Positions 5,082 through 60,498 of a stretch of 64,000 nucleotides of DNA are shown here, piece by piece. The position numbers and the translations under genes were made by a program. How positions within the stretch are numbered: position 1 is the stretch's first letter; each line of letters opens with the position of its first letter. The notes under the pieces are model-generated. The model was not told the origin of the DNA, searched no databases, and was given only the letters and a program-made list of their open reading frames with translations. Origin of the DNA: a virus; the IMG/VR virus record IMGVR_UViG_3300014208_000031, positions 103,665-167,664 of that record; one strand, 5' to 3'.

Positions 5082-5311
5082 TCTAAGTTATATCCTTTTG
5101 CTTGAGCCGTAGGGTCGTTCAAATTACTGAATTCATTCTTTAGTTTATTCAAAGTTTTTAAGTCCGCGCGGCTTTCATCTGGATTGATATACAAAAAATG
5201 CTGAATATTTTCTGATAACCATCCTTCTAAAAATTCTTCTTGATCTTTATTTCTAGATAAATTGTTGCAAGATTGCCAAATGTCTATTAAGTTAGATAAT
5301 TTATCTGTCAT
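5078..5311 (-). CDS. hypothetical protein
   Basis: Tightly packed ORF. Confidence 0.65.
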   Translation of the reverse strand: MTDKLSNLIDIWQSCNNLSRNKDQEEFLEGWLSENIQHFLYINPDESRADLKTLNKLKNEFSNLNDPTAQAKGYNLE

Positions 5312-5315
5312 AGAT

Positions 5316-6083
5316 TTATTTTTTCTTATATACTTTTACAAAATCGACAATTAAACATTCTTCTGTTAAGACATCTGCCGGATTTCTTACCCAATCTTCT
5401 GTCGGGCCAACTTCAACTGAGATTATTAGAAACATTTTAGCTTTAGTATTTAAATTATTCACTTTCCAAGTTTTTTTACCGTCTACCATGAATTGAAAAC
5501 CATTTTGATCCCAAAATAAAGAAAACGTATGAAATTGTTCGTCATCTAATTTAATTCCTAAGTTTGTAGTATCAATGGCCAAACATTTATGATAATTGTT
5601 ATATCCGCCGTAATGAATTGTGGAATTTACTATATCTCCGATATATTTATTATTATAATCAAATTTTCTTGATTCTATCAAATCTATCTCCATTGCTTGG
5701 GAGCCGTTAAATTCTTCGTTGAGTCCGGCGGACTTATTCCACAACCATAAATTTAACCAGACGCCCTCCACGGGTTTTAACTTTGCTCTAAACTCTATAT
5801 ACGAATTAACTCCTACTTCAAATTTATTTTCTGTTGTTACAATTGAACTAAAATGCCGGTTATTTTTAGTATAAGGTTGAATTATTAGTTTTCCATCTTT
5901 AATTTTAATAGCGTTTGGGGTATTAAAGGCTCCGACACGAAAACCGATTTCTGTAGTCCACTTAGACTTGTCAAAAAACTCAAAATTGTCTTCAAAAACT
6001 AATTTGTATTGACCACTACTACTTTCACAGATATTATTCTGTAAAGCTAAAAAAACCAAAAGGATTATAATTGGCAGTTTCAC
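5316..6083 (-). CDS. glycoside hydrolase family 16 with signal peptide
   Basis: LVFEDNF, catalytic EIDLIE, FHTFSLFW..FMVDG, VDFVKVY; hydrophobic N-terminus. Confidence 0.85.
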   Translation of the reverse strand: MKLPIIILLVFLALQNNICESSSGQYKLVFEDNFEFFDKSKWTTEIGFRVGAFNTPNAIKIKDGKLIIQPYTKNNRHFSSIVTTENKFEVGVNSYIEFRAKLKPVEGVWLNLWLWNKSAGLNEEFNGSQAMEIDLIESRKFDYNNKYIGDIVNSTIHYGGYNNYHKCLAIDTTNLGIKLDDEQFHTFSLFWDQNGFQFMVDGKKTWKVNNLNTKAKMFLIISVEVGPTEDWVRNPADVLTEECLIVDFVKVYKKK

Positions 6084-6098
6084 TCATAACTTTACACT

Positions 6099-6338
6099 TT
6101 AAGATTTATATTTTCCCAAGGTTCCATTATTACTTGCTTGTAACGCCTCGATTGAGGCTTGACGTGGACTTATAAATTTAATTTTAGACGGTTTTTCTGT
6201 TTCTATTATAATTTCCCCGACTTCTATCATTTTTTGAACTAAATGGTTTGCATATTGAGAAGGGAATTGGTCCGGCATATTATGAATTATATAATTTTTA
6301 GCTTCCTCAAAGTTTTTAAATATTAGTTGTTTTTTCAT
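6099..6338 (-). CDS. hypothetical protein
   Basis: ATG at 6338 (MKKQLIFK) avoids overlap with the upstream ORF. Confidence 0.6.
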   Translation of the reverse strand: MKKQLIFKNFEEAKNYIIHNMPDQFPSQYANHLVQKMIEVGEIIIETEKPSKIKFISPRQASIEALQASNNGTLGKYKS

Positions 6339-6342
6339 AATT

Positions 6343-6585
6343 TTATTTAATAGACGTTTTGATTTGTGTTTTATTACAAATTTTACATTGTCTGGATTGA
6401 GATAATCTCCAATACGTATATCCAAATTCTTTACTTTCTAAAATTTTCCATTTATCCCAAGAATGTCCGAAAAAACATCCAAATAAATCAGTAAATAGAT
6501 TGTTAGAATGACAGGTTGGAGTTTTGCCGTCTGTCCGGCGAATTGTCGGATGTTGGGTCGGTGGATTATCGTTGTGTTTATTCAT
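6343..6585 (-). CDS. small Cys/His-containing phage protein
   Basis: CFFGHSW...RQCKIC. Confidence 0.6.
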   Translation of the reverse strand: MNKHNDNPPTQHPTIRRTDGKTPTCHSNNLFTDLFGCFFGHSWDKWKILESKEFGYTYWRLSQSRQCKICNKTQIKTSIK

Positions 6586-6692
6586 ATATTATTTTCCTGT
6601 GACTAAAAATTTAATAAAAAATAGTAATCCTAAAGAAAACCACCCGATTACAAACAATGGATAATCTCTGTATAAATCTGTAAAAATTTGAA

Positions 6693-6944
6693 TCATAATT
6701 TTATTTCTACTAAAGTTCCTTCTTTTATAGCCGCCGAGATATAACTTAAAAACATAATTGCCTTATCTTGAAATTTAAGAGTGGAGTCGCCCAAATTTTC
6801 TAAGGGAACCGGGAATTTATATGTTTTATAACTTTTAGTTGTGTGATCGTCCCGCCCGATAGTATAATAAAAATATCCCTTTCTATATTCATGGAAAGTA
6901 ACGGTATTATTTTTAACTAAATCTTTTAAGTTTGGTTTATTCAT
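6693..6944 (-). CDS. hypothetical phage protein
   Basis: YRKGYFYY..FPVP..DKAI pattern; packed ORF. Confidence 0.7.
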   Translation of the reverse strand: MNKPNLKDLVKNNTVTFHEYRKGYFYYTIGRDDHTTKSYKTYKFPVPLENLGDSTLKFQDKAIMFLSYISAAIKEGTLVEIKL

Positions 6945-7134
6945 TATTTAGCTCTTTCTTTAAAACTATAGCCAAAGTTCGTCTAGTTTGAGCCACGGCG
7001 TCCCAAGCATTTGACGTAGTAGAAACAGATACTCTTAAAGATTCTGGGACTATTTCCCATCCTTCAGTTACTAATCTATTAACACGCTTTTCAAAATTTT
7101 CGCAATCAATATCGGATATTAACCAAGTTTTCAT
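6937..7134 (-). CDS. hypothetical protein (DUF1737-like)
   Basis: FEKRVNRLVTEGWE pattern. Confidence 0.55.
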   Translation of the reverse strand: MKTWLISDIDCENFEKRVNRLVTEGWEIVPESLRVSVSTTSNAWDAVAQTRRTLAIVLKKELNNE

Positions 7135-7385
7135 AATATTTTCTTAAACTTTTCAATTTTATTAACTAACAACTCTACAATCTCACGAATTCCGGGGACT
7201 CCATAAGAGTCACCGTTCACTTCAAATTCAGTTAAAACTTTTGAAGCTAATCGGCGGATTTCTGTATCGTCCGACGCCCAATCGCGCAGACTTTTGCAAT
7301 AAAACTTTCTTAAATCATCAATAGGTATTTTTTCTACCGATTCTTCTAGACTAAATAGATTATTTTGTTTAAAAAAGTTATTCAT
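7131..7385 (-). CDS. hypothetical protein
   Basis: Tightly packed ORF. Confidence 0.65.
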   Translation of the reverse strand: MNNFFKQNNLFSLEESVEKIPIDDLRKFYCKSLRDWASDDTEIRRLASKVLTEFEVNGDSYGVPGIREIVELLVNKIEKFKKIL

Positions 7386-7660
7386 TTTAATTCTAATTCT
7401 AGCTGTTCTGGTATAACGTAAAATTCTCCGTCTACAACTTGAGGATTTGGTATTTTGTTTATTATACTTTCAATAATCTTCTTTTTTAAGGGTCGCGCAG
7501 TCCAATTATTAAAACAAAACTGAATAACTCCGGGTTTGAGACTGTTTAAAGTGTCCGGCGAAACATTTAATTCGGGGGAAATCTTGCGGACAAGCGAAAC
7601 CAAATAGATTTTATGTTTGTAACTTAGCTCTTGAATATTTATCATTCTACTACTTTCCAA
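7382..7660 (-). CDS. hypothetical protein
   Basis: Tightly packed ORF; start uncertain. Confidence 0.6.
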   Translation of the reverse strand: MESSRMINIQELSYKHKIYLVSLVRKISPELNVSPDTLNSLKPGVIQFCFNNWTARPLKKKIIESIINKIPNPQVVDGEFYVIPEQLELELK

Positions 7661-7944
7661 GTTTCATTCTTTATTAAACCTTCTTCTTTTTTATTTTGAT
7701 CAATAACCCATTGTCGGGCCGCGGCCAAACTATCAAAAACCATTCTATGTTTATTAAATCCATTAAGTGAATCCCCGGAATATTGATGCAGTGGACACCA
7801 AACTTCTTTTTCTATCTTTTTATTGTCTTTTACACATACCCAATCCCAAAAACCTAGAGTTTCATACTCAATTTCTTTTTTTAAATATTCTATACCGAAT
7901 TTAGTTCCGTTGGTTATAAATCTGATTGGATAGGATTTATTCAT
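7642..7944 (-). CDS. hypothetical protein
   Basis: Tightly packed ORF. Confidence 0.65.
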   Translation of the reverse strand: MNKSYPIRFITNGTKFGIEYLKKEIEYETLGFWDWVCVKDNKKIEKEVWCPLHQYSGDSLNGFNKHRMVFDSLAAARQWVIDQNKKEEGLIKNETWKVVE

Positions 7945-7950
7945 AATTAT

Positions 7951-8223: not shown

Positions 8224-8241
8224 AGTTTTAATTTTCTCTTT

Positions 8242-8270: not shown

Positions 8271-8288
8271 GGGGTTTGTTGAGAGTGA

Positions 8289-9302: not shown

Positions 9303-9680
9303 TTATTTTTCACAATCACATTTAGTATGTCCGCAAGTTTCACATAATTTACCATAACTAGCCTGATATTGACTAATTGAATTACCGTTAAATCCGTGGC
9401 GTTGGGCCGCGCGGACTTCTAATAAATACAAACTGTTGTGAATATTATTTATAATACTTATATTCTCAGGACAAGGTATTTGATTTTGTAAATAAACAAT
9501 TCGGTCTAGAACTGCGCGGAGAACACTTTGAATTGTAGTTCCGGGATAACTATTTTTATTTCCGGGGAATCGTTCTGGATTCTTTTCGTCGTGTCGTTTA
9601 ACAAAAGTTAATGTTTGATCTAAATCTCCATCTAGAGTTAAAAGTTTATATTTGTGGCCGGGATCAATTATTTTTATCAT
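9303..9680 (-). CDS. Acb2/Tad1-like putative nucleotide-sponge protein
   Basis: GTT.Q.VL..VLDR..YLQ.Q.PC.EN...L.LLE.R resembles the Acb2 (T4 Vs.4) helical hairpin. Confidence 0.55.
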   Translation of the reverse strand: MIKIIDPGHKYKLLTLDGDLDQTLTFVKRHDEKNPERFPGNKNSYPGTTIQSVLRAVLDRIVYLQNQIPCPENISIINNIHNSLYLLEVRAAQRHGFNGNSISQYQASYGKLCETCGHTKCDCEK

Positions 9681-12087: not shown

Positions 12088-12181
12088 GAAATTGAGGTTT
12101 AAAAGATTTAAGGTGTTGAAGTCTCTAAAACTTATATCCTTTTGGATTGACCACTGAAAAAACTTTTAAATTGAGCCGCGT

Positions 12182-12214
12182 AAAAAAATAAAAGCCGGGT
12201 TAATTACTCCCGGC
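12182..12214 (-). terminator. rho-independent terminator
   Basis: GCCGGG-N9-CCCGGC followed by TTTTATTTTTTT on the minus strand. Confidence 0.75.
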
Positions 12215-12440
12215 CTTTAACATAAAACAGGTTGATTTCTCAACTAATATGAGTCCCCTTGGATTAGCTCAAATTGGCTAGTCTCAGGCCAAGACACACC
12301 TACTCATAACTCTCTTGGTCATGTACGTCTATCCGTACTGCTGTTTTATTTTTGCGCAAATCTAACTAATTAAGGATAAAAATCCTGCAACTGTTATAAA
12401 TTTTGATTTATAAAACATTATTTTATTTAATCTTGCATAT
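12182..12440 (-). ncRNA. candidate structured non-coding RNA of unknown family
   Basis: Gap with no ORF above 20 aa; both phage promoter-like motifs upstream; nested perfect stems (9-bp closing helix 12341-12349/12222-12230); terminator downstream. Confidence 0.55.
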
Positions 12441-12485
12441 TTAATTTACACGTTATCTACAAAATCTATATCCTTTTCCAAAAAA

Positions 12486-15723: not shown

Positions 15724-15751
15724 ACTATATCCTTTTGTTTTGGAAAGTCAA
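15724..15751 (-). promoter_or_regulatory. promoter: TTGACT-N16-TATAGT overlapping AAAGGATATA motif
   Basis: Intergenic, 30 nt upstream of the endonuclease gene. Confidence 0.5.
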
Positions 15752-20596: not shown

Positions 20597-20635
20597 TTTG
20601 TCTTTATCTTATATCCTTTTACACTATTTGGCCGG

Positions 20636-21067: not shown

Positions 21068-21126
21068 AAGAAAATTTATATACTTTTTAGTCTAGAAATT
21101 AACTTTCTAAAAACTCTACTACTTCA

Positions 21127-21600: not shown

Positions 21601-21616
21601 CTAAATTTATATCCTT

Positions 21617-22498
21617 TTATCCGAGTAAATCCACAATACTTTGTCCGCCGAGTTTAACTAAACGATCATTCCAGTCGTTTTCGGGCGGAAATATGATTTT
21701 TACAACATTTTCATCAAAGAAATTACTTAATTTAACTTTAATCTTTTCGGCGGCTTCATTTCCTACATTATTCTTTAAGCTATCATTATCTAGACAAATT
21801 TTGATACTTTTAAGATTTAAGCTGAGAAGAGAGGTCAAAACTTTACCGTGTAGTCTAGTTCCGAAAATACAAATTACGTTTTTAATCCCGGCGGACCAAA
21901 GAGAGAAAAGATTACCTAATGATTCCACTAAAATAACTTCTTGTTTTTGTTTTATAATTTCTAAATTTAAGTAAAGAGGAAAACAAACTTCTGAAACTTT
22001 AAATAAATGTTTCCACTTCGGCTTCATCCAATTTTCTAAAGCTCGCCCGGATATACCCACAATCTCTTTATTTTGACCGTAGATAATAGTACAGGCTCTT
22101 TTAGCCATTTTACCGTCATTAAATATTCCACAAGTAAATTCGTCAAATATGGATTCATTAATGTCGCGAGATTTCCAATACGAATTATCTTTTATTAGAG
22201 AATCTAAAATAGAATTATCAAATTTTTTAGGAAGTTTTAACTCATCAATAAAATCAGTGTTGGAAAAAGCAAACTGAGATTCTTCCAGTTTATTTCCGGC
22301 AATAATTTCGGCTAGTTTAGAAAACGGCCCGCCGGATGCTTGAACGAAATCAAACCAAAAACCAGTTTTTTTATTAATAGATAAATTCCAGTTTGAGCCG
22401 CCGCGATACAAACATTTTGACGACCATTCATTTCCAGCGTCTCTAACTGGATAACCATGTTCTTCTAAAAAAGATTTAATGTCTAGTTCTTGCTCCAT
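21617..22498 (-). CDS. DNA primase (TOPRIM)
   Basis: VGISGR, PKWKH, LVES, FGT, LDND, NDWND. Confidence 0.85.
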   Translation of the reverse strand: MEQELDIKSFLEEHGYPVRDAGNEWSSKCLYRGGSNWNLSINKKTGFWFDFVQASGGPFSKLAEIIAGNKLEESQFAFSNTDFIDELKLPKKFDNSILDSLIKDNSYWKSRDINESIFDEFTCGIFNDGKMAKRACTIIYGQNKEIVGISGRALENWMKPKWKHLFKVSEVCFPLYLNLEIIKQKQEVILVESLGNLFSLWSAGIKNVICIFGTRLHGKVLTSLLSLNLKSIKICLDNDSLKNNVGNEAAEKIKVKLSNFFDENVVKIIFPPENDWNDRLVKLGGQSIVDLLG

Positions 22499-24652: not shown

Positions 24653-24724
24653 CCAAAATTATATCCTTTTCTGGATTCCGCGCGGATAACTCTTTTTAAG
24701 AAAACTTAATGGAATCTAAAAAAA

Positions 24725-26291: not shown

Positions 26292-26323
26292 AGTTTTAAA
26301 AGTCTTGTCTAATCCTATATACT

Positions 26324-26590
26324 TTACACTTTTTCTTTCAATTTCTTATCATTTTCTGTTTGAAACCCTAAAACTTTCTCATCTAACTCAGCGGATAATT
26401 CATTTTCATAAAAATACACTTCTTTTATTTCTTCCCCAGCAAAATATCTAATATTATAGCTTAATCCTAAATTACTTAAATAAATAGATTTAACTACCCC
26501 AATTTTATTTAATTCGAGTATTTTAACTTTGTCTAATAAATCAAATTTGGTTTCTAATATCATTTTACTAGTAATCTCCATTCCTTTCAA
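26324..26590 (-). CDS. hypothetical protein (SH3-like)
   Basis: KFDLLDKV..GVV..Y.IRY..FYENEL. Confidence 0.6.
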   Translation of the reverse strand: MKGMEITSKMILETKFDLLDKVKILELNKIGVVKSIYLSNLGLSYNIRYFAGEEIKEVYFYENELSAELDEKVLGFQTENDKKLKEKV

Positions 26591-26816: not shown

Positions 26817-27229
26817 AAATCTAAGTCAAATTTTTCTTTTAAATATTGTTTAGAGAGGTTTTTTAAATCTTCATCGTACCACTCCAGAAAAGTGAAGCCG
26901 CCGCGTTCAGCCCATAACATTTTATCTGCATCGGCCTTAATTTTCTTATGGAACCCAACTCTATTGCCGTGCATAAATTTATTGAATTCTAAATGTAATT
27001 TGTCAGGACTAATTTCAATACAAATTTTAGAACTTAGGTTGATCAAGTCGATACGGTAAAGAGATGATGGAATTCTAAATTCTTCTAGAACAATTGATGA
27101 TTTCCAATAAGGGTAGAGAAATTTTTTAGCCTTGAATTGGGGCGCGGATACTTTACGTGACCAATCAATAAGATATGGAGAAATGTTAACATTAACTAAC
27201 TTGTCACTTTCAAATTTTAAAAATTTCAT
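26813..27229 (-). CDS. PD-(D/E)xK nuclease (DUF559/Vsr-like)
   Basis: EEF..IDL..ICIEI..H..D..K..W. Confidence 0.65.
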   Translation of the reverse strand: MKFLKFESDKLVNVNISPYLIDWSRKVSAPQFKAKKFLYPYWKSSIVLEEFRIPSSLYRIDLINLSSKICIEISPDKLHLEFNKFMHGNRVGFHKKIKADADKMLWAERGGFTFLEWYDEDLKNLSKQYLKEKFDLDL

Positions 27230-28381
27230 TTATTCACAAAGTAAATTCTTAAACTTATTATAAAACCATTCAAAAACTACTTTATCATTCTCGATATATT
27301 CATATAGATTATTTAATCCTTGAATAGTCTCTTGTAATTTAATTCCGGCGGCTTCACTTTCTTGTATGATTTCTGGAGAGAAGTTAATCCACGCACCTTT
27401 TCTAGTCGCAAAACTCCATGACAAAATATTGTCCGCTACTTCCTTGGATACCCATATTGCATTACCAATTTTATTTTTACGAATAGGAATTTTTATTTTT
27501 AATCCAGATACGTCGGTCGCAGATTTTTTAATTTCTACAGTCGCATAAACCCCAATTATTTTGTTTTTAAGATGATCCGGTTTTTCATCTGGTTTTTCTA
27601 GGATTTGATCTCCCGTAAATCTCTGACCGTAGGAGAGTACGTAATCACTCTGATGCTCGACTGACGCTCCACCGACACTTGGCCCTTGTCTTTTTGCTTC
27701 CGTTGAATATTTATCTAATTCTATACTAGCAGAATACTGACCAGTAATTAGTAATAATGCATCATAGTGAGATATTGGTAATCCTAGATGCCTAAATAGC
27801 AATTTTGTCATTTTTGGAACCCCTGCTACCATGCCGGTGTTATCTACTTCTTTTGTATGTAAATCCGTCTTTAAAATAACTCCATCAAGGCTGTCTAAGA
27901 TTATTACAAGGTATTCCCCATTTTCATGCATTTCTTCTAGTAGTTTTTTTACTACTTTAGCTATTGTTTCAAATGTATTAGTCGATAAAATAAATACCGT
28001 TCCATAATCCCAATCTTCAGGATTTGTTACGAATTTATGCCCACTTCTTTTTTGCATTTCTTCACTTAATCTTGATTCTGCTTTAATAAAAAGAGTTTTA
28101 GATTTTGGCATTACGTCCATATAATTCCGCGCGATTACAAAACATTCAGACGTTTTTCCTAATTCTGCGCCTTTACCTACTAATCTAACTACGCCACCAG
28201 AACGGATTTTAACATAACTGTCTAAAGTGAGCGAGCCCGTAGAGATAATTTGATGTCTAGGTATAATATGATTATAAATATCGTCTTTGTTTTCTTTTAG
28301 AAGGCTGGATAATATGTCATTTGATCGACTTCCAGAAATTCCTTCTTCCTCAATACTAACATTTTTATTTTTTGGTGCCAT
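27230..28381 (-). CDS. recA: RecA/UvsX-like recombinase
   Basis: ISTGSLTLD, GKTS, IILDSL, GG.SVEH, GAWI. Confidence 0.8.
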   Translation of the reverse strand: MAPKNKNVSIEEEGISGSRSNDILSSLLKENKDDIYNHIIPRHQIISTGSLTLDSYVKIRSGGVVRLVGKGAELGKTSECFVIARNYMDVMPKSKTLFIKAESRLSEEMQKRSGHKFVTNPEDWDYGTVFILSTNTFETIAKVVKKLLEEMHENGEYLVIILDSLDGVILKTDLHTKEVDNTGMVAGVPKMTKLLFRHLGLPISHYDALLLITGQYSASIELDKYSTEAKRQGPSVGGASVEHQSDYVLSYGQRFTGDQILEKPDEKPDHLKNKIIGVYATVEIKKSATDVSGLKIKIPIRKNKIGNAIWVSKEVADNILSWSFATRKGAWINFSPEIIQESEAAGIKLQETIQGLNNLYEYIENDKVVFEWFYNKFKNLLCE

Positions 28382-28714: not shown

Positions 28715-28798
28715 CAAAATCTATATACTTTTGCAAATCTAAACTCCCAATTATTTTGAAGAAATTCCGCGCATTATCCCAGCGAAATCCTAGTATTA

Positions 28799-30379: not shown

Positions 30380-31204
30380 CTAAAACTTATATCCTTTAGT
30401 TGAGGATTCTGTAATAACTTTAGGTATAGGGAGTTTATTTTTTTTAAACCAAATTTCATTAAATTGAACAGAATTAGTTAATTCATCCCATTTATAAGAA
30501 CAGCCGTCGCCATTTAAAGTTGGCTTTTTATCAGAACTCCACCGGGTATTTTGGTATAAAATTTTATCACGGCTCCGAGAATTTGAAAGCCAAGAAAGGT
30601 GCTTAATCGGAATATTTATAGTCTTATTCTTTAAAATATTTTGATCAACTAATTGCTTGTCAGTGCCATATTCAAACAAAATATTATTGTCATAATTAAA
30701 AGAATTTAATTTAAACGGCGGACAATCTACCTTCCAAATCCGCGGAGGAGTAAATAAGTCTGCTAAATACTGATTTTCCGTTTGGTAATAGTTTCTCAAT
30801 GAGAGTCTAAACCAATTAGTTTCTGGATTATTTTCAACGTATTCTACTATTTCTTTTATTTGCTTTAAGGTAAAAAGCTCATCAGAGGCGTCTAAAAGTA
30901 TGATCGTGTCGCAGCCAGCTTCCAAAAGAGGTTTCAATGCAAGATTCCGCGCGGCGGCTTCGCTTAACGGTTTATCACTTATGTTTAAATAACTTATTGA
31001 TCCATTATTATAATAATCAGTTAGTTTTCTATGGGTTCCGTCTTTGCTTAAAATAGGATTTCCTAAATCAAAAAATTCCTGAAAACACGAATGGACTACA
31101 GAAATCTTACTGTTATTTTTTAAACTGTATAAAATAAATGGACTTAATGATTTATCTAGAAAATCTGAACAATCATAAGCCGCTGCCAAAAATCCAGTTT
31201 TCAT
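30380..31204 (-). CDS. glycosyltransferase, GT-A fold (GT2-like)
   Basis: AAYD, ARNLAL, LLDASDE, HLSW. Confidence 0.65.
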   Translation of the reverse strand: MKTGFLAAAYDCSDFLDKSLSPFILYSLKNNSKISVVHSCFQEFFDLGNPILSKDGTHRKLTDYYNNGSISYLNISDKPLSEAAARNLALKPLLEAGCDTIILLDASDELFTLKQIKEIVEYVENNPETNWFRLSLRNYYQTENQYLADLFTPPRIWKVDCPPFKLNSFNYDNNILFEYGTDKQLVDQNILKNKTINIPIKHLSWLSNSRSRDKILYQNTRWSSDKKPTLNGDGCSYKWDELTNSVQFNEIWFKKNKLPIPKVITESSTKGYKF

Positions 31205-31638: not shown

Positions 31639-32844
31639 TTATTTTATATCCTTTGCGTCGGCGTATTCCCACTTAAAACCATACCAAGTTTTTCTCTTTC
31701 CCTTACAGGCTGTTGATAGATTTTTATTTTTAACGCCTAAATAATTAGCTGCTTCCTGTAAGCTATTAAAAATATTAATAACTTCGTTTGTATTTTTATC
31801 AATTTGTTTAACTTTTTTGCGTTTTGGAGAAATGGTAGATTCAAGGGCGCAATTTGGGCATCCCCTTCCTTGTAAATGACATTTTGGTGTTTGCTGGAAT
31901 TTTATATTACAAGGTTTACATTGAATTTCCATTTTGGAATTTCTCTTTGAATATGTTGATTCGTTATACATATATTTATAATTATGTATCAAATTTGCTT
32001 TATCAAGAAACGACTGAAACGTTTTTCGTGCAGGATAATTTTGAGACAAACAGATTTTGCATCCTTCTTTACCCTGTAAATGGCTACCTCTATTCTGAGT
32101 AAATTTTAAATTATGAATTTTACAAGTTAAATTAGTAAACAGAATATTATTTTTTAGTTCAAAATCATGATAGTAGTATTTATCTCCAAATATATCCATA
32201 CTTTTCTCTGTAAAATCTTGCAAACTCATCATTTTTGTTTCCGATGCTCTTTCATTTTTACATAAATTACAACCTTGACCAGCGATATGTTGCACGGCTT
32301 TCTGATAAAAAAATTTCTGACACCGTTTGCAAAAAATTTCTATCTTATTTTTATAGCCCGTATAATTTACTCTTGAATAATCATATTTATCATCATGAAT
32401 AAATTTACATCTCTCGATAAAATGATTTCGGGTTTCTCTTTTACCAAATTTAGTTCTTAAAACATCTTCTTCGCAAGAATGTATGATTTCGCCGCCAGGA
32501 GTCTTATTATACCCAAAATCAGAATCATTAGATTTATATCTTTTAATGTAATGTTTTTCTAAATCAAGAAGTTCTAAATTAGAACAATTTTCATGTTTAA
32601 CATAAAAACCAAAATCTTCTGGATTGTAAAATCGTATGGCATTCATAACATGCAGATTATGTCTTTCATATTTTAGCCAGTCATTTTTATATCTTTGGTT
32701 AAAAGTTTGAACTGTTTTACCAACATAACATTTACCATTTATCTTGTTAAAAATTAGATATAATATTCCTATACTATTTTCTAATTGAAATTGAGATGCC
32801 GGGATTAAAGATAATAAATCTTGAATTAATTCATCTGTTGACAT
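31639..32844 (-). CDS. GIY-YIG homing endonuclease with zinc-ribbon repeats and NUMOD1 domain
   Basis: ILY..NKINGKCYVGKT, GYNKTPGG, three C..H..G.GC..C repeats, FNSLQEAA..GFKWEY. Confidence 0.85.
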   Translation of the reverse strand: MSTDELIQDLLSLIPASQFQLENSIGILYLIFNKINGKCYVGKTVQTFNQRYKNDWLKYERHNLHVMNAIRFYNPEDFGFYVKHENCSNLELLDLEKHYIKRYKSNDSDFGYNKTPGGEIIHSCEEDVLRTKFGKRETRNHFIERCKFIHDDKYDYSRVNYTGYKNKIEIFCKRCQKFFYQKAVQHIAGQGCNLCKNERASETKMMSLQDFTEKSMDIFGDKYYYHDFELKNNILFTNLTCKIHNLKFTQNRGSHLQGKEGCKICLSQNYPARKTFQSFLDKANLIHNYKYMYNESTYSKRNSKMEIQCKPCNIKFQQTPKCHLQGRGCPNCALESTISPKRKKVKQIDKNTNEVINIFNSLQEAANYLGVKNKNLSTACKGKRKTWYGFKWEYADAKDIK

Positions 32845-33894: not shown

Positions 33895-34155
33895 CTATAT
33901 ACTTTGTTTTTGAAAAAGCGTAGTCCAATCACCCTGATTTAATCTACCTTTTAATTGCTCAATCTCGGCGGTTAATATCTCATTGGTTTTACGTTCAGAA
34001 TCAATCAATTCTCTTAAAACTTCAACTGGTTTATAATTTTTACGATAATAAGACAATTCTTGTTCCAAAGATTCTACAATTCGATTGAGCGCGCCGATTT
34101 GGATCGCGCGGCCTTCCATTGTGTTTGAAAGTGGTATATAGTTGTAACTATACAT
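33895..34155 (-). CDS. coiled-coil hypothetical protein
   Basis: Packed ORF. Confidence 0.6.
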   Translation of the reverse strand: MYSYNYIPLSNTMEGRAIQIGALNRIVESLEQELSYYRKNYKPVEVLRELIDSERKTNEILTAEIEQLKGRLNQGDWTTLFQKQSI

Positions 34156-36410: not shown

Positions 36411-36429
36411 TTAATTTTATATCCTTTTA

Positions 36430-37822: not shown

Positions 37823-39118
37823 TTATATACTTTCGTTTCTATAAACACTAAATTCCGGAGACGTTAGAATAAAAGACCCGCCTTTGTCTAAATATTCTTT
37901 TTCTCTTTGTTTAAAATTCTCTAAAAAGAACCAAGGACCGATGAGAAGATAATCGGGATTTTTTAATCTCATATCACTATCACTGATAATTTTTAAGTTA
38001 CTCCCGGTCATTTTTAATCCAACTTTTCTATCTTGTTTTTCTGAAATAGCAGAAACTAAATCAACATTCAATTGAAATACTTGACTTAAAGTTGAAAATT
38101 TCGTGGACGCACCATAGCCGAATACCGTTTTACCTTTACTTTTTTCATTAACTATAAAATCAAGGGTTTTTCTTTTTAATGATTGAATTTTTTGATAGAA
38201 TTTTTCATAAACATCAACTGAATTATAACCATTGTTTTCTTCCCATTCTAAAAGTGACTTAATTCTAATTTGAGCAATATCATTGTCCGCCGGGGTTTTA
38301 AAATTTCGCGCGGATTCTTTTTGTAAATAAACTCTTAATGAGCCTCCATTTACATTGTTTAATTCTACATCTTTGATCACAAATCCTGCTAAATCGGTAA
38401 TATATTTAAGCGAAGTTAAATTAAAATACGTTAAATGTTCAAATGTTAAATTTCCTACCTCACATTGAATTAACATTAGAGGAGTATAAGATAATTGAAT
38501 TACACAAACTCCATCGTCCTCCAAAATCTCATACATATCCTTAATGCCTTGAACGGGATCGGGAAAGTTATACAAACAGGCACAACAACTGATGTAACGG
38601 GCTTTATTATAGCCTTTAATTCTATCGGTAAAAACTTTAGAATATCTATTGAAAGCGTCCGCCGAAAAATAATCACGAATAGACAAATCCGCCGCACCTT
38701 CCATTAAATCATACTTAGATGGATCAATACCTATTCTAATAAAATATGATGAGATATTAGAAAGTAATGTATTGTCATTTGAGCCGACATCTAGATAAAC
38801 ACTATTTTCTATAGCCGGAATACAATTTACGGTTTTCTGAGCAACATCTTTTAGAGCCGCGGCCATAGAAGGATTTGTTGAACTTAAATACCAGTAAAAA
38901 TTTGTAAACATAGCCTCGGCGGGTGGCTGCGCCATCAATTGAGCGACTTTAGAAACAGGATCGAACCCGAGAGTTAATTCACACGGCGGACATTTAGGAT
39001 TTTCATCCACCGGAATAAAATCAGAAACATACAATTCTCCTAAAGAAAATATTGGAATTAGTTTTTCATTACTTACAACCGAATGGGTAAATTGTTTATT
39101 CATTAATTTTTTAATCAA
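37823..39118 (-). CDS. NDP-sugar C-methyltransferase
   Basis: YWYLSS, DVGSND, EHLTYF, NGGSLR, GYGASTK. Confidence 0.85.
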   Translation of the reverse strand: MIKKLMNKQFTHSVVSNEKLIPIFSLGELYVSDFIPVDENPKCPPCELTLGFDPVSKVAQLMAQPPAEAMFTNFYWYLSSTNPSMAAALKDVAQKTVNCIPAIENSVYLDVGSNDNTLLSNISSYFIRIGIDPSKYDLMEGAADLSIRDYFSADAFNRYSKVFTDRIKGYNKARYISCCACLYNFPDPVQGIKDMYEILEDDGVCVIQLSYTPLMLIQCEVGNLTFEHLTYFNLTSLKYITDLAGFVIKDVELNNVNGGSLRVYLQKESARNFKTPADNDIAQIRIKSLLEWEENNGYNSVDVYEKFYQKIQSLKRKTLDFIVNEKSKGKTVFGYGASTKFSTLSQVFQLNVDLVSAISEKQDRKVGLKMTGSNLKIISDSDMRLKNPDYLLIGPWFFLENFKQREKEYLDKGGSFILTSPEFSVYRNESI

Positions 39119-39875: not shown

Positions 39876-40679
39876 CTATATACTTTCTTCTTCTACTTCT
39901 GGTTCTTTAAAATGAACAAATGAGTTTTTTTTATCATTAGTCGGGATTTTCCACGCGGGCCAATATTTTTTCTCTAAAACATCTTTCCATTCCTCGTCAT
40001 TCCAAGGGGGGTGAGCCGCGCGCTCAGTTGGATAAACTAAAACTTTTAATTGTTGAGTATCGCAACGATGAATATATTGACTTCCATCTTTATTTTCTCT
40101 AACGGCGTAACACCCATTCTCTTTATATATTTTAGAGGTATGCGCTACTTTTAAATTATTTTCTTTAAAATATTTTTGAATAAAGTTTTCTAGTGGTGGA
40201 ACGTCTGAATATGGCCCCGGCCCGCCATAAATTCCATTTTCATCACATTTTTTAATAGATTTATAAAATTCCGTGTTCATAAAAAACACTCGCCCCGAAT
40301 AAGTATTTTCCCCACAAATTCCGCCGGTTAAGTCAATACAACTTGCGCCGCCATATTCTAAAGTATAAATAAAACTATTTATATTGTCTTGAGTAATTGG
40401 ATATAAAAGCTCGCAATCATTTTCGATAAAAAATGAATATTTGCTTTTGCAATTATTGTAAAGTTCTATGCAGCCAAACCCTTCGCCTTCATTAATTTTA
40501 TTTATAACTAATTTATCAATTAAGCCTTCTTGATATGATCTAAAAATTTCAGCGGGATCATTACCGCCATTATTAAATAAAATTACGCGATTTTCAAAAA
40601 GTGCAAATTTTTTAATTGCCTCCAAGCACAATCTTGTTTCAGCAGGTCTATTAAAATTAATAACTAAAATATCAATCAT
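39876..40679 (-). CDS. glycosyltransferase family 2-like
   Basis: ILVINFNR, NNG, NEGEG, IENDC. Confidence 0.75.
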   Translation of the reverse strand: MIDILVINFNRPAETRLCLEAIKKFALFENRVILFNNGGNDPAEIFRSYQEGLIDKLVINKINEGEGFGCIELYNNCKSKYSFFIENDCELLYPITQDNINSFIYTLEYGGASCIDLTGGICGENTYSGRVFFMNTEFYKSIKKCDENGIYGGPGPYSDVPPLENFIQKYFKENNLKVAHTSKIYKENGCYAVRENKDGSQYIHRCDTQQLKVLVYPTERAAHPPWNDEEWKDVLEKKYWPAWKIPTNDKKNSFVHFKEPEVEEESI

Positions 40680-41991: not shown

Positions 41992-42957
41992 TTATTTGTT
42001 GTTTTCAGCTACCAATTTACAAAGATGAATAAAGTAGTTTTGTGGTAAATCCATTTTAATATAGTTAATATCTTTATGGACCCATTGGATATTATCTTCT
42101 GTGTAGCCCAAATCAGAATTGATTCTATCTAAAGATGCGGTAGCGGAAGTATTTCCCGTTCTTTCTCCTAAAACGCCTAAATTTATTTCTATTCCTGTTA
42201 ATGCGCATTTATAATTTTGTTTAACAAAAAGTTCATATCCAAATTCTATTGTAATATTAAATTCCAATCCTCTGGTTATTGCTCCATACCTTATTCTTTC
42301 CCAGTAAGACTTACTGATTTCTTTATATCCTTTAAAATTAGCCAAAACAATTGCCATACGAGCACATTTTTCGCATAAAGCCTTACTATCTTTTAATTGA
42401 TGATAGCTTCGCTGGAATTTTTCTCCGCATTTACATTTCCAGTTAGTTAACGAAACTACCGATTTTGGATACGATCCAAGATATTCAATATTTAGATTTT
42501 TAGCTAATATAAAATATTCATCTTCTGTTTTCGGCGCATTTCCGGCACAATGTGGACAATTACCCGTTCTGGATATATTATTGTATGAAGTTTCCCAAAT
42601 GTGTCCAAATTGGCACTTCCATCTTATTTTGGTATGGGTAGTTCTTGGAATTGGATCGAGATATTCTATATTTTTTCTAATTGCAACTTCATCATATTGC
42701 TCTTTTCTTATATTGGTTTTCTTCTCCATAGAAGCACCTTTATTCCAAGCTCGGCGGCCTTTACACGCAAATGACGTAGCGCATCTTTGACATAATTTAT
42801 CTCCAACACCTTTTAAAGCATTACTTTTTAATATAGCTCTTTCTCTATCTCCTTGATGACTTTCAAACTCACAAGATACTAAAGAATAAATCCTATCTCT
42901 AGTTCTATCTCTATATTTTTCCCGTCGAGTTTCAAAATCTAAAATAAGAATAGCCAT
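41992..42957 (-). CDS. zinc-ribbon + HNH-like endonuclease
   Basis: WKC..GH.W..CPHC repeats; CALTG, SLDRINSDLGYTEDNIQWVH..IN..K. Confidence 0.8.
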   Translation of the reverse strand: MAILILDFETRREKYRDRTRDRIYSLVSCEFESHQGDRERAILKSNALKGVGDKLCQRCATSFACKGRRAWNKGASMEKKTNIRKEQYDEVAIRKNIEYLDPIPRTTHTKIRWKCQFGHIWETSYNNISRTGNCPHCAGNAPKTEDEYFILAKNLNIEYLGSYPKSVVSLTNWKCKCGEKFQRSYHQLKDSKALCEKCARMAIVLANFKGYKEISKSYWERIRYGAITRGLEFNITIEFGYELFVKQNYKCALTGIEINLGVLGERTGNTSATASLDRINSDLGYTEDNIQWVHKDINYIKMDLPQNYFIHLCKLVAENNK

Positions 42958-44796: not shown

Positions 44797-44811
44797 AAAA
44801 CTCTATATCCT

Positions 44812-45642
44812 TTATTCTGGCAAACTTTCTAGAATTTTATCTAGACTTTGTTCAATGGTTAAATTCCAAGTGAATCCTATTTTTTTTAGTTTATTCGTGT
44901 CTAATCTGAATGATGGAATCTGCACAATTTTGTGAAAATCACTTGGCTCGCGCGGACTTATAATACTTTTACTATTTAGTTTATTTTGACAATAATCAAT
45001 GATCCACCGGAAATTCCAGTCGGTTGATTCTGGCCCGACATTATATTTTTGATTTCTTTCTCCATTATCTATAATAAATTTAATCGCGCGGACACACTCA
45101 AAAACATCTAAGTATGATCTGTAAAACAATCCAGAATCATAAATTTCAATTGGCTTATTCTCTTTTAATAATTGAATTAATTGCTGTAACGCATTCTTTT
45201 TAGACGAAAAATTATCTCCAATTCCAATAATATTACTTAGTCTTAAAATAATAAAATCTATATCATTCATCTTACAGTAAGTTTCAACAAATTGCTCGGC
45301 GCATAATTTTGAAGCCCCGTAGAACCCTAAAACTTTTCCTTGTTCATTTTCTTTAGTTATGTGCGCGCGTCCACCGGTCACACCGTATGAGAACCATGAG
45401 CCAGCATATACGAATAAATCATTCTTTTTTAAATTGCGTAAAACTTTTACTAAATTTGTTAAGTTAATTTCAACATTCTCTTCTGGTTCTGAATAGTTTG
45501 TGGTTAAAGACCGTAAATATAAAATTTTGTTACTTTTAGGCTCGAAATCCCCGGAGTTAATTTTAATTGATTCGTTTTCATACAGCAGCGCGAATTCCGA
45601 CCCGATAAACCCGGCGGAACCAAAAATAGAAATTTTATCCAT
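44812..45642 (-). CDS. NAD-dependent epimerase/dehydratase
   Basis: GSAGFIG, YGASK, RLSNIIG; ATG 45642. Confidence 0.85.
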   Translation of the reverse strand: MDKISIFGSAGFIGSEFALLYENESIKINSGDFEPKSNKILYLRSLTTNYSEPEENVEINLTNLVKVLRNLKKNDLFVYAGSWFSYGVTGGRAHITKENEQGKVLGFYGASKLCAEQFVETYCKMNDIDFIILRLSNIIGIGDNFSSKKNALQQLIQLLKENKPIEIYDSGLFYRSYLDVFECVRAIKFIIDNGERNQKYNVGPESTDWNFRWIIDYCQNKLNSKSIISPREPSDFHKIVQIPSFRLDTNKLKKIGFTWNLTIEQSLDKILESLPE

Positions 45643-50059: not shown

Positions 50060-50079
50060 AAAAATATATATCCTTTAGT

Positions 50080-51677: not shown

Positions 51678-51734
51678 GAGCAAAAATCTTTCACTCAAGA
51701 CCTATATACTTTTACAAACTCAAATTCTAAAAAA

Positions 51735-52328: not shown

Positions 52329-52535
52329 CTATGGAACTAAAACTTTAATTAAAACAGAAATAAGACCGCCGCCGATTACCCCCGCTATTCCAGAAAAAAA
52401 AGCAATTTTTGTTTTAGTAATAGCATTATCTCTCTGGCCCGTTCTTTCTCTATCCTCAAGAGTTTTTAATCTCTGGTCATAAGACTTTAGAGTTTCTAAT
52501 ACGTGAAATTCATATTTTTCCCATTCGTTACTCAT
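52329..52535 (-). CDS. small coiled-coil + C-terminal TM protein (holin-like)
   Basis: RLKTLE then IAFFSGIAGVIGGGLISVLI. Confidence 0.5.
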   Translation of the reverse strand: MSNEWEKYEFHVLETLKSYDQRLKTLEDRERTGQRDNAITKTKIAFFSGIAGVIGGGLISVLIKVLVP

Positions 52536-53016
52536 GGGTGATTAAAAGTTCTTTTAGTTTTTGAAGATTAAAATCGGTAATCTCTCTTTGTTTTTGAACC
52601 CTTATCCACCAATCATTATTCCAGCTTAATATTGTGTCTATAATTTTACTCATAAAATTTCTGGATTCAATCATAGAGAATTTGTCTAATACCTCTACAC
52701 CCAATTTAGCTATTTTTTCCTTATCTTCGGGTGTAATTAACCCGGTCAATACCAGCACCGGAGTTTTATCTTGTATAAGTTTGATTTTATCAATAGTCTC
52801 CGCCGGTGTAGAATCAGCTAATGTTAAATCTAATACGGTTATATCTGGAGTGGGAACACTATTAATAATTTCTATAGCGCGCGCCATTGTCGGGGCAATA
52901 ATTATTTCTGCATCAGGAAATTCCCTTTTTAAAGGGTGTAAAAATTTTACCAATATCTCTGAAAAAGCTGATTCGTCTTCAACAATTAGAATTTTTAGGT
53001 AATTAAAGCTAGCCAT
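52528..53016 (-). CDS. single-domain response regulator (receiver domain)
   Basis: ILIVEDE, PDITVLDLTL (phospho-Asp), VLVLTG, DK. Confidence 0.8.
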   Translation of the reverse strand: MASFNYLKILIVEDESAFSEILVKFLHPLKREFPDAEIIIAPTMARAIEIINSVPTPDITVLDLTLADSTPAETIDKIKLIQDKTPVLVLTGLITPEDKEKIAKLGVEVLDKFSMIESRNFMSKIIDTILSWNNDWWIRVQKQREITDFNLQKLKELLITHE

Positions 53017-55511: not shown

Positions 55512-55657
55512 ACTAATTTATATCCTTTTTCTTTAAATTTTCTAAAAATGCCATAGATAGGTAATATTAATTTACACGGCTAAACTTTTAATAAAAAGTA
55601 TAATTAAAAAAGTTTAAAAATCCTTAAAATTAAACTAATAAAAGTGTAGCCTCGCGA

Positions 55658-57123: not shown

Positions 57124-57124
57124 A

Positions 57125-58228: not shown

Positions 58229-58236
58229 AAATTAAG

Positions 58237-58701
58237 TTATTCCTCTTCCTCTTCTAAATCTGGTTTATTTTGATTTAAATTTTGATGGTTCTTTATTAAA
58301 TTACTAGTGAGAACCAATAAATCTTCTATGTCGGCGGACGTTATACAAAGAGGATTAGTTGAAATTGGATCATCTTTATCTCTTACATCATTAATAGTTT
58401 TTGAAATTAAAAAAGCTAATTCTCCGTTAATCTCCACATTTTGAGGGTATAATTGAAGAGGTTTTTCTAGTAAATATCCAATTTTATTTTTCTTACCTTC
58501 AACAAATGGAACGTTTTTTACTAAAAGGGCATCTTCAAAGGACTTCAAAGCAACCTTAAAGGATTCAAGGTCCAGTTCGGGCGTTTCTGTAATATGTAAT
58601 TCTTGTAAATTTAAAATCGTTTTTACATCGTCCGGCCAGACGATAGTATCGTGATCTTTGTAAAAAAGATAAATAAGGTTTTTTATTGTTGAGAGTAGCA
58701 T
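58237..58701 (-). CDS. hypothetical protein
   Basis: ATG 58701 preferred. Confidence 0.7.
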   Translation of the reverse strand: MLLSTIKNLIYLFYKDHDTIVWPDDVKTILNLQELHITETPELDLESFKVALKSFEDALLVKNVPFVEGKKNKIGYLLEKPLQLYPQNVEINGELAFLISKTINDVRDKDDPISTNPLCITSADIEDLLVLTSNLIKNHQNLNQNKPDLEEEEE

Positions 58702-58712
58702 AATTATATTTT

Positions 58713-58886
58713 TTAGTAACCTTCCCATGAATCTACACCAGCTTCTTCTAATCTAGTTAATTCGTCGTCTCGCTCTTGAAGACGCGTGATTTCTAATGCT
58801 GCTTTTTCAAGCAATTCACAAGACTCTTTACTTAGATTACTAATTCTTGCAATATAATGTAACTGATCAATTTCGTCTTTATTCAT
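58713..58886 (-). CDS. small phage protein (LE.AGVD.WEGY C-terminal motif)
   Basis: Ends LEEAGVDSWEGY; ATG 58886. Confidence 0.65.
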   Translation of the reverse strand: MNKDEIDQLHYIARISNLSKESCELLEKAALEITRLQERDDELTRLEEAGVDSWEGY

Positions 58887-59151
58887 TATTTTCCTCTTTA
58901 TTTTGCTTACTAAATAAGTCTTGCATTTCACTATTAAATTTTTTAGTTAATTGTAAAACTTTATAACTTAATCCGCGCATTTCCGGCGGGGTGGAGTCAA
59001 GTAAAAAATCAACTATTTCAAAATTAACTTGACTTAATAAATTTAAACTACAATCAATAATCGTATTGGTTGAGACGACATCCTGTAAAGAGAACTTAGG
59101 TTTATTAACCTCTTTAATTTGTCCGCCGGATTCTTGATTATTTTCTTCCAT
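58879..59151 (-). CDS. hypothetical protein
   Basis: Packed ORF. Confidence 0.65.
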   Translation of the reverse strand: MEENNQESGGQIKEVNKPKFSLQDVVSTNTIIDCSLNLLSQVNFEIVDFLLDSTPPEMRGLSYKVLQLTKKFNSEMQDLFSKQNKEENNE

Positions 59152-59156
59152 ATTTT

Positions 59157-59555
59157 TTATTTTTTGTATCTAACACGCGGCTCAAATATATTTCCTATTA
59201 CTTGAATTGATTTGTTAATGATTTCTTTATTACATAAATTATATCCCCAACACGCGCGGAATCCATAATCAGTGTGAAAAACTATTTGAGTTTCAATTTC
59301 TTCAATTCTTAAATTATCTTCATATCCAGAACCGACTTGTCGTTCAAATAAACAAATATCTCCTTCGTAAATTTCATGATTATCTCTGTCTTTTAATCCT
59401 GTAAATTGACAATAAGTTATATTTTTATCATATAGACTAAAAGGTCTCCCTACTAGGGGATTTTCAGTTCCATCATATTCAAATTCTATTTCAGATGGAT
59501 TAAGCCATTCTTTTTTGTTGTTATCCCAAAATTTAAATTTAATTTCTCGTTGCAT
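59157..59555 (-). CDS. YopX-family protein
   Basis: REIKFKFWD, QFTGLKD..EIYEGDI, VIGNIFE. Confidence 0.88.
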   Translation of the reverse strand: MQREIKFKFWDNNKKEWLNPSEIEFEYDGTENPLVGRPFSLYDKNITYCQFTGLKDRDNHEIYEGDICLFERQVGSGYEDNLRIEEIETQIVFHTDYGFRACWGYNLCNKEIINKSIQVIGNIFEPRVRYKK

Positions 59556-59580
59556 AAAATCTCTCAAAAAATATATCCTT

Positions 59581-60498
59581 TTACGATTTCGATTCAACTA
59601 AACATTTTAATTTCCCGTGGATTTTGTCTAGATGACTCATAATTTTAGTAGAAGATACATTATATTTTTTCGCCAGCCCGGACAATGTATGTTTTTGACA
59701 ATTAATACCATATCGGTTGTAAATAATTGATCTTTCTTTCTCTGGTAATTCATCTAAAGACCTTAATAAGTTATCAAACTTTTCTTTTTCTTCTAAATGC
59801 GAATATGGAGTAAAATTCAATCCATTGTTTAAAACAGTATCTTTCCCGTCAGATTCCGGGCGGCTATAATAACCAAATTCGTTTTGTAAAGTTAAAGAAT
59901 CAATTAACCCGTCATTTCCTAAATTCTCAATCGGTTTGTCCAACTCCACGGATTTCTTAAATAAGTTTAATAATAGTTTTGTTTCGGATTTTTTAAGTTT
60001 TAGTTTTTCACCAATCATGTTTTGTATTTCGTTTTCGTCTAAATCATTAAATTTACCTTGTTTATATAATTTGTTGATGTTATTTAAACGAGTGTTGGAA
60101 GTATCACTAACACTAAATTGTCTTATATTTTCTCTGTAAAAGTTCCATAATTCTTTAAGTATAGCTCTATAACAAAAAAATCCCCAAAGTGAGCCGCCCG
60201 TTTTATTTATTGTTTTATACATTGAAAGGTCAAAAGTTTCCAGCGCCCGGCCAATTCCGATAATTCCTGCGTGTATTAAATCTGCTCGTGACAAATTATT
60301 GTTTTTCGCGTATTTTCTAGAGAGAGAAACAACAACTTTTAAATAGGCAGTTATTAATTTTTCGCGGGACTCTTGACACTTATGATTTATACATTTGTCT
60401 AATAAATCAAATTCCTCGGTTTTCTTTAGCATTTTTGTCTCGGCGGCTAATTTTTCATAATAATTAATAATTATTGTTTCAGTTTGATTATCGTTCAT
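59581..60498 (-). CDS. sigma-70 family RNA polymerase sigma factor
   Basis: REKLI..L..VVSLSRKY, DLIHAG.IG..RA.E.FD (region 2), L.EKER.II..RYG..TL..LA (region 4). Confidence 0.85.
   Translation of the reverse strand: MNDNQTETIIINYYEKLAAETKMLKKTEEFDLLDKCINHKCQESREKLITAYLKVVVSLSRKYAKNNNLSRADLIHAGIIGIGRALETFDLSMYKTINKTGGSLWGFFCYRAILKELWNFYRENIRQFSVSDTSNTRLNNINKLYKQGKFNDLDENEIQNMIGEKLKLKKSETKLLLNLFKKSVELDKPIENLGNDGLIDSLTLQNEFGYYSRPESDGKDTVLNNGLNFTPYSHLEEKEKFDNLLRSLDELPEKERSIIYNRYGINCQKHTLSGLAKKYNVSSTKIMSHLDKIHGKLKCLVESKS

Follow-up and report, generated by a model that had tools for sequence, protein, structure and literature searches.

Locus and copy number of the M1 motif

The window analyzed in this study, a stretch of 64,000 nucleotides (nt), forms the terminal 64 kb of the 167,664-bp virus record IMGVR_UViG_3300014208_000031, which has 33% GC and whose DNA was found only in two groundwater DNA metagenomes. 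Nearly all window genes between positions 235 and 60498 are carried on the minus strand, in an arm that begins with a gene for a sigma-70-family factor. The 10-mer AAAGKATATA (K = G/T), hereafter M1, recurs ahead of genes in this arm, and its possible role as a phage promoter is the subject of this work. A second motif, M2, was defined as GTGTAAA or, in its extended form, WAGTGTAAA. Offsets are counted from the last A of M1, and coordinates are those of the window unless the genome, that is, the whole record, is named.

The window contained 23 exact copies of M1, all on the minus (coding) strand (Table 1); dinucleotide-preserving shuffles contained 1.37 copies on average and never more than 4. 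The whole record contained 40 copies (31 minus, 9 plus), and all 40 were co-oriented with the local gene block, including those in two small minus-strand islands within the plus-strand arm. Position 5 of the motif was occupied by G in 25 copies and by T in the other 15. An earlier note on this DNA had estimated that about a third of the copies carry T in place of the second G, which agrees with 8 of 23 in the window and 15 of 40 in the record; its count of 21 window copies has to be raised to 23. The possibility raised there, that the motif is equally common on the antisense strand or at random positions, does not fit the strand distribution or the shuffled expectation. Its description of the M1-associated genes as a replication, nucleotide and glycan regulon is too narrow, as genes for the large terminase, homing endonucleases and DNA polymerase III alpha are also included.

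Words with A or C at position 5 and other one-mismatch words were mostly intragenic, on either strand and without the downstream context described below, and the 10-mer with G or T at position 5 is therefore specific. Removal of the AAA prefix yielded just three or four additional plausible sites. A scan of IMG/VR for M1 with its spacing and an ATG returned 54 single matches, which is compatible with chance, and no second phage family using M1.

Spacing between M1 and start codons

Among the 40 copies in the record, an ATG opening an open reading frame (ORF) was located at offset 7 in 13 copies, at offset 8 in four and at offset 9 in two, and no ATG was present at offsets 1 to 6 or 10 after any copy. 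The computed chance of at least 15 of 40 at one given offset was 2e-18, so the 13 observed at offset 7 are likewise far beyond chance. All 19 of these close starts were ATG, and in each case this ATG was the first in-frame start possible. At the 7-nt spacing, the TAR triplet of M1 itself is a stop codon in the frame of the gene, and another start in that frame usually follows only after 14–82 codons. The ATG must therefore be within the transcript, and its distance from M1 is under selection. A GTG (24652) is located 7 nt after one further copy, with an in-frame ATG in better context 18 nt further on. Altogether, 21 of the 40 copies were not start-adjacent, lying 11–134 nt from a start or having no ORF.

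The 11 starts that had been reported at exactly 7 nt were all correctly placed, ten being ATG and the eleventh (24652) GTG, and the same holds for the three reported at 8–9 nt (33887 at 8; 21067 and 30378 at 9). The proposal of a leaderless regulon drawn from them is in line with the 19 ATGs at 7–9 nt; it does not extend to the 21 other copies, which would produce leaders of about 4–130 nt or non-coding RNAs.

Upstream context of genes with and without M1

A Shine-Dalgarno (SD)-like 4-mer between -20 and -4 was present in 19 of the 218 genes without either motif (9%). The upstream regions of these 218 genes were rich in A, which occupied -3 in 69%, and the share of G was 3–7% from -7 to -1. 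Such an A-rich, Kozak-like pattern is known from bacteria without SD sequences (PMC6847099). In the gene set, the 18 motif-adjacent genes carried T at 41 of 54 positions from -3 to -5, and A at -3 was found in 4 of these 18 genes versus 150 of the 218 others (Fisher p=1.4e-4). M1 genes with longer leaders retained A-richness at -6 to -3 (47 of 76 positions).

Fifteen of the 40 copies were AAAGTATATA, which is a poor SD sequence (AAAGTA), and the invariant TATA of M1 has no part in SD pairing. The AAGGA of the G variant is located 11 nt from the AUG. M1 thus does not combine the complementarity to the anti-SD sequence, the placement 5–10 nt before the start and the general use in the genome that mark an SD sequence. 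It is well supported by these sequence features that M1 would fit a promoter far better than a ribosome-binding site (RBS).

Promoter-like contexts and downstream signature

M1 copies within the 3' ends of upstream genes occurred in all three reading frames, which excludes a peptide constraint as their cause. Four copies were found 0–38 nt past a terminator-like hairpin with a T-tract. No position from -45 to -1 upstream of M1 had an information content above approximately zero (n=40), so there is no fixed -35 element; upstream k-mers showed a weak, variably placed TTTAGAAAGTT-like enrichment that was not significant after multiple testing. Downstream of M1, we found a purine at position 11, directly after TATA (34 of 40 copies), a T-run at positions 13–15 and a purine-rich segment from positions 16–18. 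The 21 copies without a nearby ATG displayed the same T-to-purine switch, and the eighth base after M1 was a purine in 17 of these 21. This T-run followed by purines reads like a discriminator and a +1 site.

An over-represented, co-oriented element without a fixed -35, in a genome that encodes a sigma-family protein, is the arrangement of phage sigma-dependent single-element promoters. The earlier view of M1 as a promoter without an evident -35 is also upheld by its strand specificity, its independence of frame, its intergenic, post-terminator and pre-non-coding-RNA copies and its retention in relatives that carry the sigma gene.

The copy at 12467–12476 is followed by a candidate non-coding RNA of about 270 nt (12182–12459, minus strand), an ORF-free stretch between M1 and a strong hairpin with T-tract. 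The word CGTGTAAA is located 22 nt inside it, and no Rfam family was found for the non-coding stretch. A near-identical start, AAAGGATATAGATTTTTGTAGA, heads a further 650-nt non-coding stretch past the record end, at position 6342 of a 224-kb contig of the same phage (L057).

Sigma factor gene, weak sigma-like ORF and relatives

The 305-amino-acid (aa) ORF at 59581–60498 matched TIGR02937 with 59.5 bits (cut-off 42.9) and phrog_351; region 4 was above the Pfam cut-off and region 2 was weak, and the best solved relatives were RpoH, SigA and RpoD. Its predicted product is, on these matches, a genuine sigma-70-family protein. A host-type promoter candidate precedes the gene, whose stop codon is overlapped by the first M1 copy. 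Between the sigma ATG and a variant composite (AAAGCATATA...GTGTAAAGTATAAT) there are about 420 nt without ORFs (60498–60924, minus strand), which could represent an extended leader or a further non-coding RNA.

A second, weak sigma-like ORF of 225 aa was identified at genome positions 26974–27651 on the plus strand (L067:1387-2064). It matched region 2 with an E value of 0.008 and TIGR02937 with 30 bits, below the cut-off. It directly follows an HNH/NUMOD4 homing-endonuclease gene, and its operon is preceded by an M1 variant and M2. The record yielded neither a T7-like (PF00940) nor a multisubunit RNA polymerase domain, in a search in which T7-type control genomes gave no match either and for which the record is probably incomplete. 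Genes for IF3, bS21 and peptide deformylase were not found in the record.

Homologues of the 305-aa sigma factor in a large protein collection numbered only four, at 53% (L073), 46%, 40% (L074) and 34% (L055) identity. In L073, a 1.2-kb contig, TTGACT-N16-TATAGT lies upstream of the sigma gene, in the same place as here, and AAAGTATATA, 7 nt and an ATG come directly after the sigma stop. The 38-kb contig L074 is syntenic with this phage over several genes and carries co-oriented rrGTATATAr sites, one of them right after the sigma gene, as well as one exact AAAGTATATA located 7 nt before an ATG. At its position 9426, a composite containing GTGTAAA is located upstream of the sigma gene, as in this phage. 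M1 has thus been kept, together with this sigma family, in considerably diverged relatives, in what is a small sample; like its copy statistics and contexts, this conservation was observed directly.

No close relatives were found in a phage collection by DNA or by sigma protein (E 1e-5), nor in IMG/VR by the sigma protein, a sigma alignment or DNA polymerase III alpha. The same phage is represented on the 224,142-bp JGI contig L057, which is 99.98% identical over 14.4 kb. Because this contig extends past the record end (L057:1-6498), the record is probably incomplete despite a completeness estimate of 100%.

Second motif, host-type promoters and probable temporal classes

WAGTGTAAA occurred nine times in the window versus 2.2 expected, with eight copies on the coding strand, and M2 was also present in the structural-gene arm. 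In at least five cases in the structural arm and one in the window, TTTCAY was located exactly 15 nt upstream of GTGTAAA. M2 is, judging from this arrangement, probably a bipartite promoter, TTTCAY-N15-GTGTAAA, and probably of a late class. Seven genes have M2 at 6–8 nt ahead of their ATG, and in one case a GTG follows M2 at 7 nt. M1 and M2 are unrelated words that share just the distance to the start codon, which points to a promoter-to-start-site geometry and is hard for an RBS to explain. Composite M1/M2 sites (GTGTAAAGTATATA, GTGTAAAAGGATATA) were found at 26316 and 20610 and at genome position 74721.

Host-type promoters, TTGACA/T-N16-18-TAnnnT, several of them TG-extended, cluster at genome 0.6–8.6 kb and also flank the divergent region at 60.5–61.05 kb. 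A three-tier cascade would follow, in which host-type promoters serve early genes, M1 probably middle genes and M2 late genes. The order host sigma, sigma 1 (M1) and sigma 2 (M2) is plausible, and we infer it from the placement of these elements.

A Bacteroidota host, first assumed from the missing SD sequences and the A at -3, was dropped, as the early promoters have the form TTGACA/TAnnnT and not TTTG/TAnnTTTG. A host search with the GDP-mannose dehydratase gave just a 26%-identical Prochlorococcus match, which was uninformative.

Proposed start site and function of M1

We favor, with moderate confidence, the interpretation that M1 is a phage-specific single -10-like promoter core, probably of the middle class, that would be read by a phage factor and produce leaderless mRNAs at the start-adjacent genes. 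Its promoter function, start-site position, reader and temporal class are what we infer from the motif data. Host RNA polymerase with a phage-encoded specificity factor, most plausibly the 305-aa sigma, would use M1, and transcription would begin 7–8 nt after its last A. At the 19 sites whose sole possible ATG lies 7–9 nt after M1, the mRNA would start at the AUG or 1–2 nt before it and would be translated without an RBS. The remaining copies would give rise to the longer leaders or non-coding RNAs mentioned above, and one or two intragenic copies may be due to chance. Because a start at the eighth base gives leaders of 0, 1 and 2 nt, and any closer start codon would be truncated, the absence of ATGs closer than 7 nt and the tail at 8 and 9 would be explained.

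Of the features of leaderless genes, those visible in sequence are present: a fixed element-to-start distance of about 6–7 bp, no RBS or usual context between the two, and AUG starts. The earlier note had taken TATAnn as the -10 element, which leaves 5 nt to the ATG; an alignment on KATATA (7 nt) matches validated leaderless systems better. The sigma-A -7 box of Bacteroidota, TAnnTTTG, is positioned at -12 to -5 with the start 4–5 nt downstream (PMC6847099, PMC9723704). The TArnTTTw segment that begins within M1 bears some likeness to this box, but the corresponding register (TArnTTTw at -12 to -5) was rejected, since +1 would fall after the sole available ATG; its last position was G in only 5 of 40 copies, and the early promoters of the phage are of the TTGACA/TAnnnT form.

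Several observations weigh against a leaderless promoter read by the 305-aa sigma. The start site is placed by geometry and composition only, and KATATA lacks the final T that is usual in sigma-70-type -10 elements. Although the sigma contains a region 4, a -35 partner at a fixed position was not found. The conserved purine after TATA would equally fit initiation at that base, with a 7-nt leader. Many M1 copies are situated in tightly packed operons, where read-through RNA would carry the word, and an added RNA-level role may exist. Additionally, the contig with the most distant sigma homologue (L055) has no such word, and the orthologue in this phage of the exact-motif gene of L074 lacks the motif, which indicates that promoter positions turn over though the word is kept.

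That M1 is a promoter with its start at the purine after TATA or 3–7 nt before the ATG, giving leaders of 3–7 nt, seems to us improbable. The purine at position 11 would be accounted for, and T7-class promoters likewise end in TATA with a purine at +1; TATA followed by a purine is present in M1. A phage RNA polymerase to go with it, whether single-subunit or multisubunit, was not detected, in the search that was silent for its T7-type controls too and for a record that is possibly incomplete. An alignment of AA-GTATA to the phiEco32 element tAATGTAtA also puts the start 2–4 nt before the ATG (PMC8948821). However, the position-11 purine is in many copies the third base of the upstream stop codon, the T-run at 13–15 and the purines at 16–18 resemble a discriminator and +1, and a start 7 nt upstream would leave the tight clustering at 7, and never closer, unexplained. 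Very unlikely, in our judgment, is an action of M1 in RNA, as a non-canonical RBS or enhancer, as the operator of a RegA-like regulator or as an endonuclease site for trimming before the AUG. The AAAGGA of the G variant is complementary to the 3' tail of 16S rRNA, about half of the copies stand at a fixed distance from an AUG, and many copies are inside operons, where transcription from upstream would include them. Nevertheless, SD sequences are hardly used (9% of the genes), the T variant makes up 15 of 40 copies, and TATA would be idle in SD pairing; the 11 nt between AAGGA and AUG exceed the optimum that Chen et al. are said to have found in 1994. The 21 copies that lie 11–134 nt from a start or before a non-coding RNA, the four copies straight after terminators, where upstream transcript should be scarce, and the same spacing of a different word with a -35 partner, GTGTAAA, speak against it as well.

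The identity of the reader leaves somewhat more room. It is possible, although we consider it unlikely, that M1 is a promoter read by the 225-aa sigma-like protein, or by the primary sigma of the host, which a phage activator or appropriator would redirect in the style of T4 MotA/AsiA. The second ORF does have weak similarity to sigma region 2, the region 4 of the 305-aa sigma better suits the bipartite GTGTAAA than the box-less M1, and the TATATA of the T variant resembles a host -10. On the other hand, the 305-aa sigma gene stands behind a host-type promoter and heads the M1 arm, with M1 copies beginning at its stop; the motif is retained at the same location in relatives with this sigma family; and the operon of the 225-aa ORF follows an M1 variant and GTGTAAA, which fits a succession of host sigma, sigma 1 and a late sigma 2. 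The 305-aa sigma is the most plausible reader of M1, on circumstantial evidence. The earlier designation of this protein as the candidate reader can be kept insofar as it is a genuine sigma that heads the M1-bearing arm; the link itself is circumstantial, and a second sigma-like ORF is encoded elsewhere.

If M1 is read in this way, it may be speculated that leaderless mRNAs bypass host initiation, for which phiYS40 is the sole precedent. A wider proposal is that a sigma cascade with M1 (middle) and M2 (late) fused to start codons would shift much of protein synthesis to leaderless mRNAs, without a phage translation factor and in a host lineage without SD use and presumably with few leaderless mRNAs; we hold this to be doubtful.

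Comparison with known systems

Promoters of phiEco32 gp36 consist of a single element, tAATGTAtA, with starts 6–8 bp downstream (PMC8948821). Like M1, they are 9–10-bp single elements ending in GTATA/TATA, have no -35, serve many genes and go with the phage's own sigma-70-family factor, and their start distance of 6–8 bp is the one M1 needs for a start at the ATG. The words differ, however, and gp36 lacks the region 4 that this sigma has; this sigma has no detectable similarity to any phage record (E 1e-5). In the phiEco32 account, the transcripts are not described as leaderless.

T4 late promoters (TATAAATA, gp55) are AT-rich TATA single elements without a -35, present in about 40 copies in about 168 kb. 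They resemble M1 in being TATA-containing single elements without a -35, as well as in copy number and genome size. In contrast to the proposed reading of M1, T4 late transcripts carry SD-bearing leaders, and gp55 requires gp33 and the sliding clamp.

In phage phiYS40, middle and late mRNAs are mostly leaderless, and a shift of host translation towards leaderless mRNAs has been proposed (PMC3594737). Like phiYS40, this phage would have a regulon of leaderless mRNAs, which is predicted from sequence here. In phiYS40 the data are experimental, and the phylum of its Thermus host itself uses leaderless mRNAs widely. In Deinococcus, a -10 motif, TANNNT, located 6–7 bp before the ORF without an RBS was shown experimentally to make leaderless mRNA (PMC12340547). 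The -10-to-ORF spacing and the logic are the same as for M1, although the Deinococcus-Thermus element is a 6-bp signal of a cellular housekeeping sigma and M1 is a 10-bp phage-specific word, without the final T, in a phage with 33% GC.

What is new here is the word, together with the sigma lineage and the phage; the principle is already known from phiEco32, T4 late promoters and phiYS40. Experimental evidence for the design of a promoter at the AUG exists for only a few phages. If the proposed reading is true, M1 would provide a case outside Deinococcus-Thermus phages of phage promoters placed so that mRNAs begin at the AUG. It would also supply a transcription map of a 168-kb (possibly 224-kb) groundwater phage, with about 40 middle promoters, a late class and host-type early promoters, fix about 20 start codons unambiguously and flag at least one phage non-coding RNA.

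Features of the window and the record

The M1 copies of the window and the linked elements are compiled in Table 1.

Table 1. M1 copies, M2 copies, promoter candidates and associated features (window positions unless marked as genome; G and T denote position 5 of M1)
Feature	Position	Strand	Context
M1 G	59572..59581	-	Overlaps sigma gene end; 16 nt before ATG 59555 (YopX-like protein, 132 aa); syntenic motif after sigma gene in L073 and L074
M1 G	55519..55528	-	7 nt before ATG 55511 (class II ribonucleotide reductase, 807 aa)
M1 T	51703..51712	-	25 nt before ATG 51677 (272 aa)
M1 G	50067..50076	-	7 nt before ATG 50059 (methyltransferase, 214 aa)
M1 G	44804..44813	-	7 nt before ATG 44796 (137 aa)
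M1	42324..42333	-	Within ORF 41992-42957, without downstream T-run or ATG; possibly chance copy or internal promoter
M1 T	39877..39886	-	7 nt before ATG 39869 (252 aa)
M1 T	37824..37833	-	7 nt before ATG 37816 (methyltransferase, 223 aa)
M1 G	36418..36427	-	7 nt before ATG 36410 (FkbM methyltransferase, 255 aa)
M1 T	33896..33905	-	8 nt before ATG 33887 (290 aa)
M1 G	31645..31654	-	7 nt before ATG 31637 (143 aa)
M1 G	30388..30397	-	9 nt before ATG 30378 (64 aa)
M1 T	28722..28731	-	7 nt before ATG 28714 (107 aa)
M1 T fused to M2 (GTGTAAAGTATATA)	26316..26325	-	24 nt before ATG 26291 (helix-turn-helix/TnsA-like protein, 424 aa)
M1 G	24660..24669	-	7 nt before GTG 24652, or 25 nt before in-frame ATG 24634
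M1 G	21608..21617	-	7 nt before ATG 21600 (157 aa)
M1 T	21077..21086	-	9 nt before ATG 21067 (143 aa)
M1 G fused to M2 (GTGTAAAAGGATATA)	20610..20619	-	13 nt before ATG 20596 (66 aa)
M1 G, intergenic	15726..15735	-	30 nt before ATG 15695 (LAGLIDADG-type protein, 333 aa)
M1 G	12467..12476	-	Heads ~270-nt ORF-free stretch with terminal terminator hairpin; candidate non-coding RNA
Terminator-like hairpin + T-tract	12182..12217	-	Closes candidate non-coding unit; ~38 nt upstream of next M1
M1 G	12133..12142	-	Just past terminator 12182..12217; 45 nt before ATG 12087 (153 aa)
M1 T	5327..5336	-	15 nt before ATG 5311 (77 aa)
M1 G	5089..5098	-	7 nt before ATG 5081 (82 aa)
Post-terminator M1	genome 57062, 46520		Before homing-endonuclease genes
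Post-terminator M1	genome 91309; window 12142		
Sigma-70-family factor gene	59581..60498	-	305 aa, regions 2 and 4; first gene of minus-strand arm; candidate M1 reader
Host-type promoter candidate TTGACT-N17-TACAGT, TG-extended	60573..60601	-	Upstream of sigma gene
Host-type promoter	61023..61051	+	Flanks divergent region
Variant AAAGCATATA, then GTGTAAAGTATAAT	60915..60924	-	~420 nt upstream of sigma ATG
M2 WAGTGTAAA	1760, 6091, 13067, 20618, 26323, 32986, 43532, 53053	-	
M2	genome 39-77 kb	+	Structural-gene arm
Host-type promoters TTGACA(GAAT)-N16-18-(TG)TAnnnT	genome 598, 2902, 6454, 8095, 8567	+	Presumed early regions

In addition, GC-rich words such as GTCCGCGCGG and CCGCGCGGAC were 150–260 times over-represented relative to a first-order Markov model across the whole genome, with many sites at 2269–51578 of the window. 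A stand-alone response-regulator receiver-domain protein of 162 aa is encoded at 52528–53016 on the minus strand, just downstream of the ribonucleotide reductase gene.

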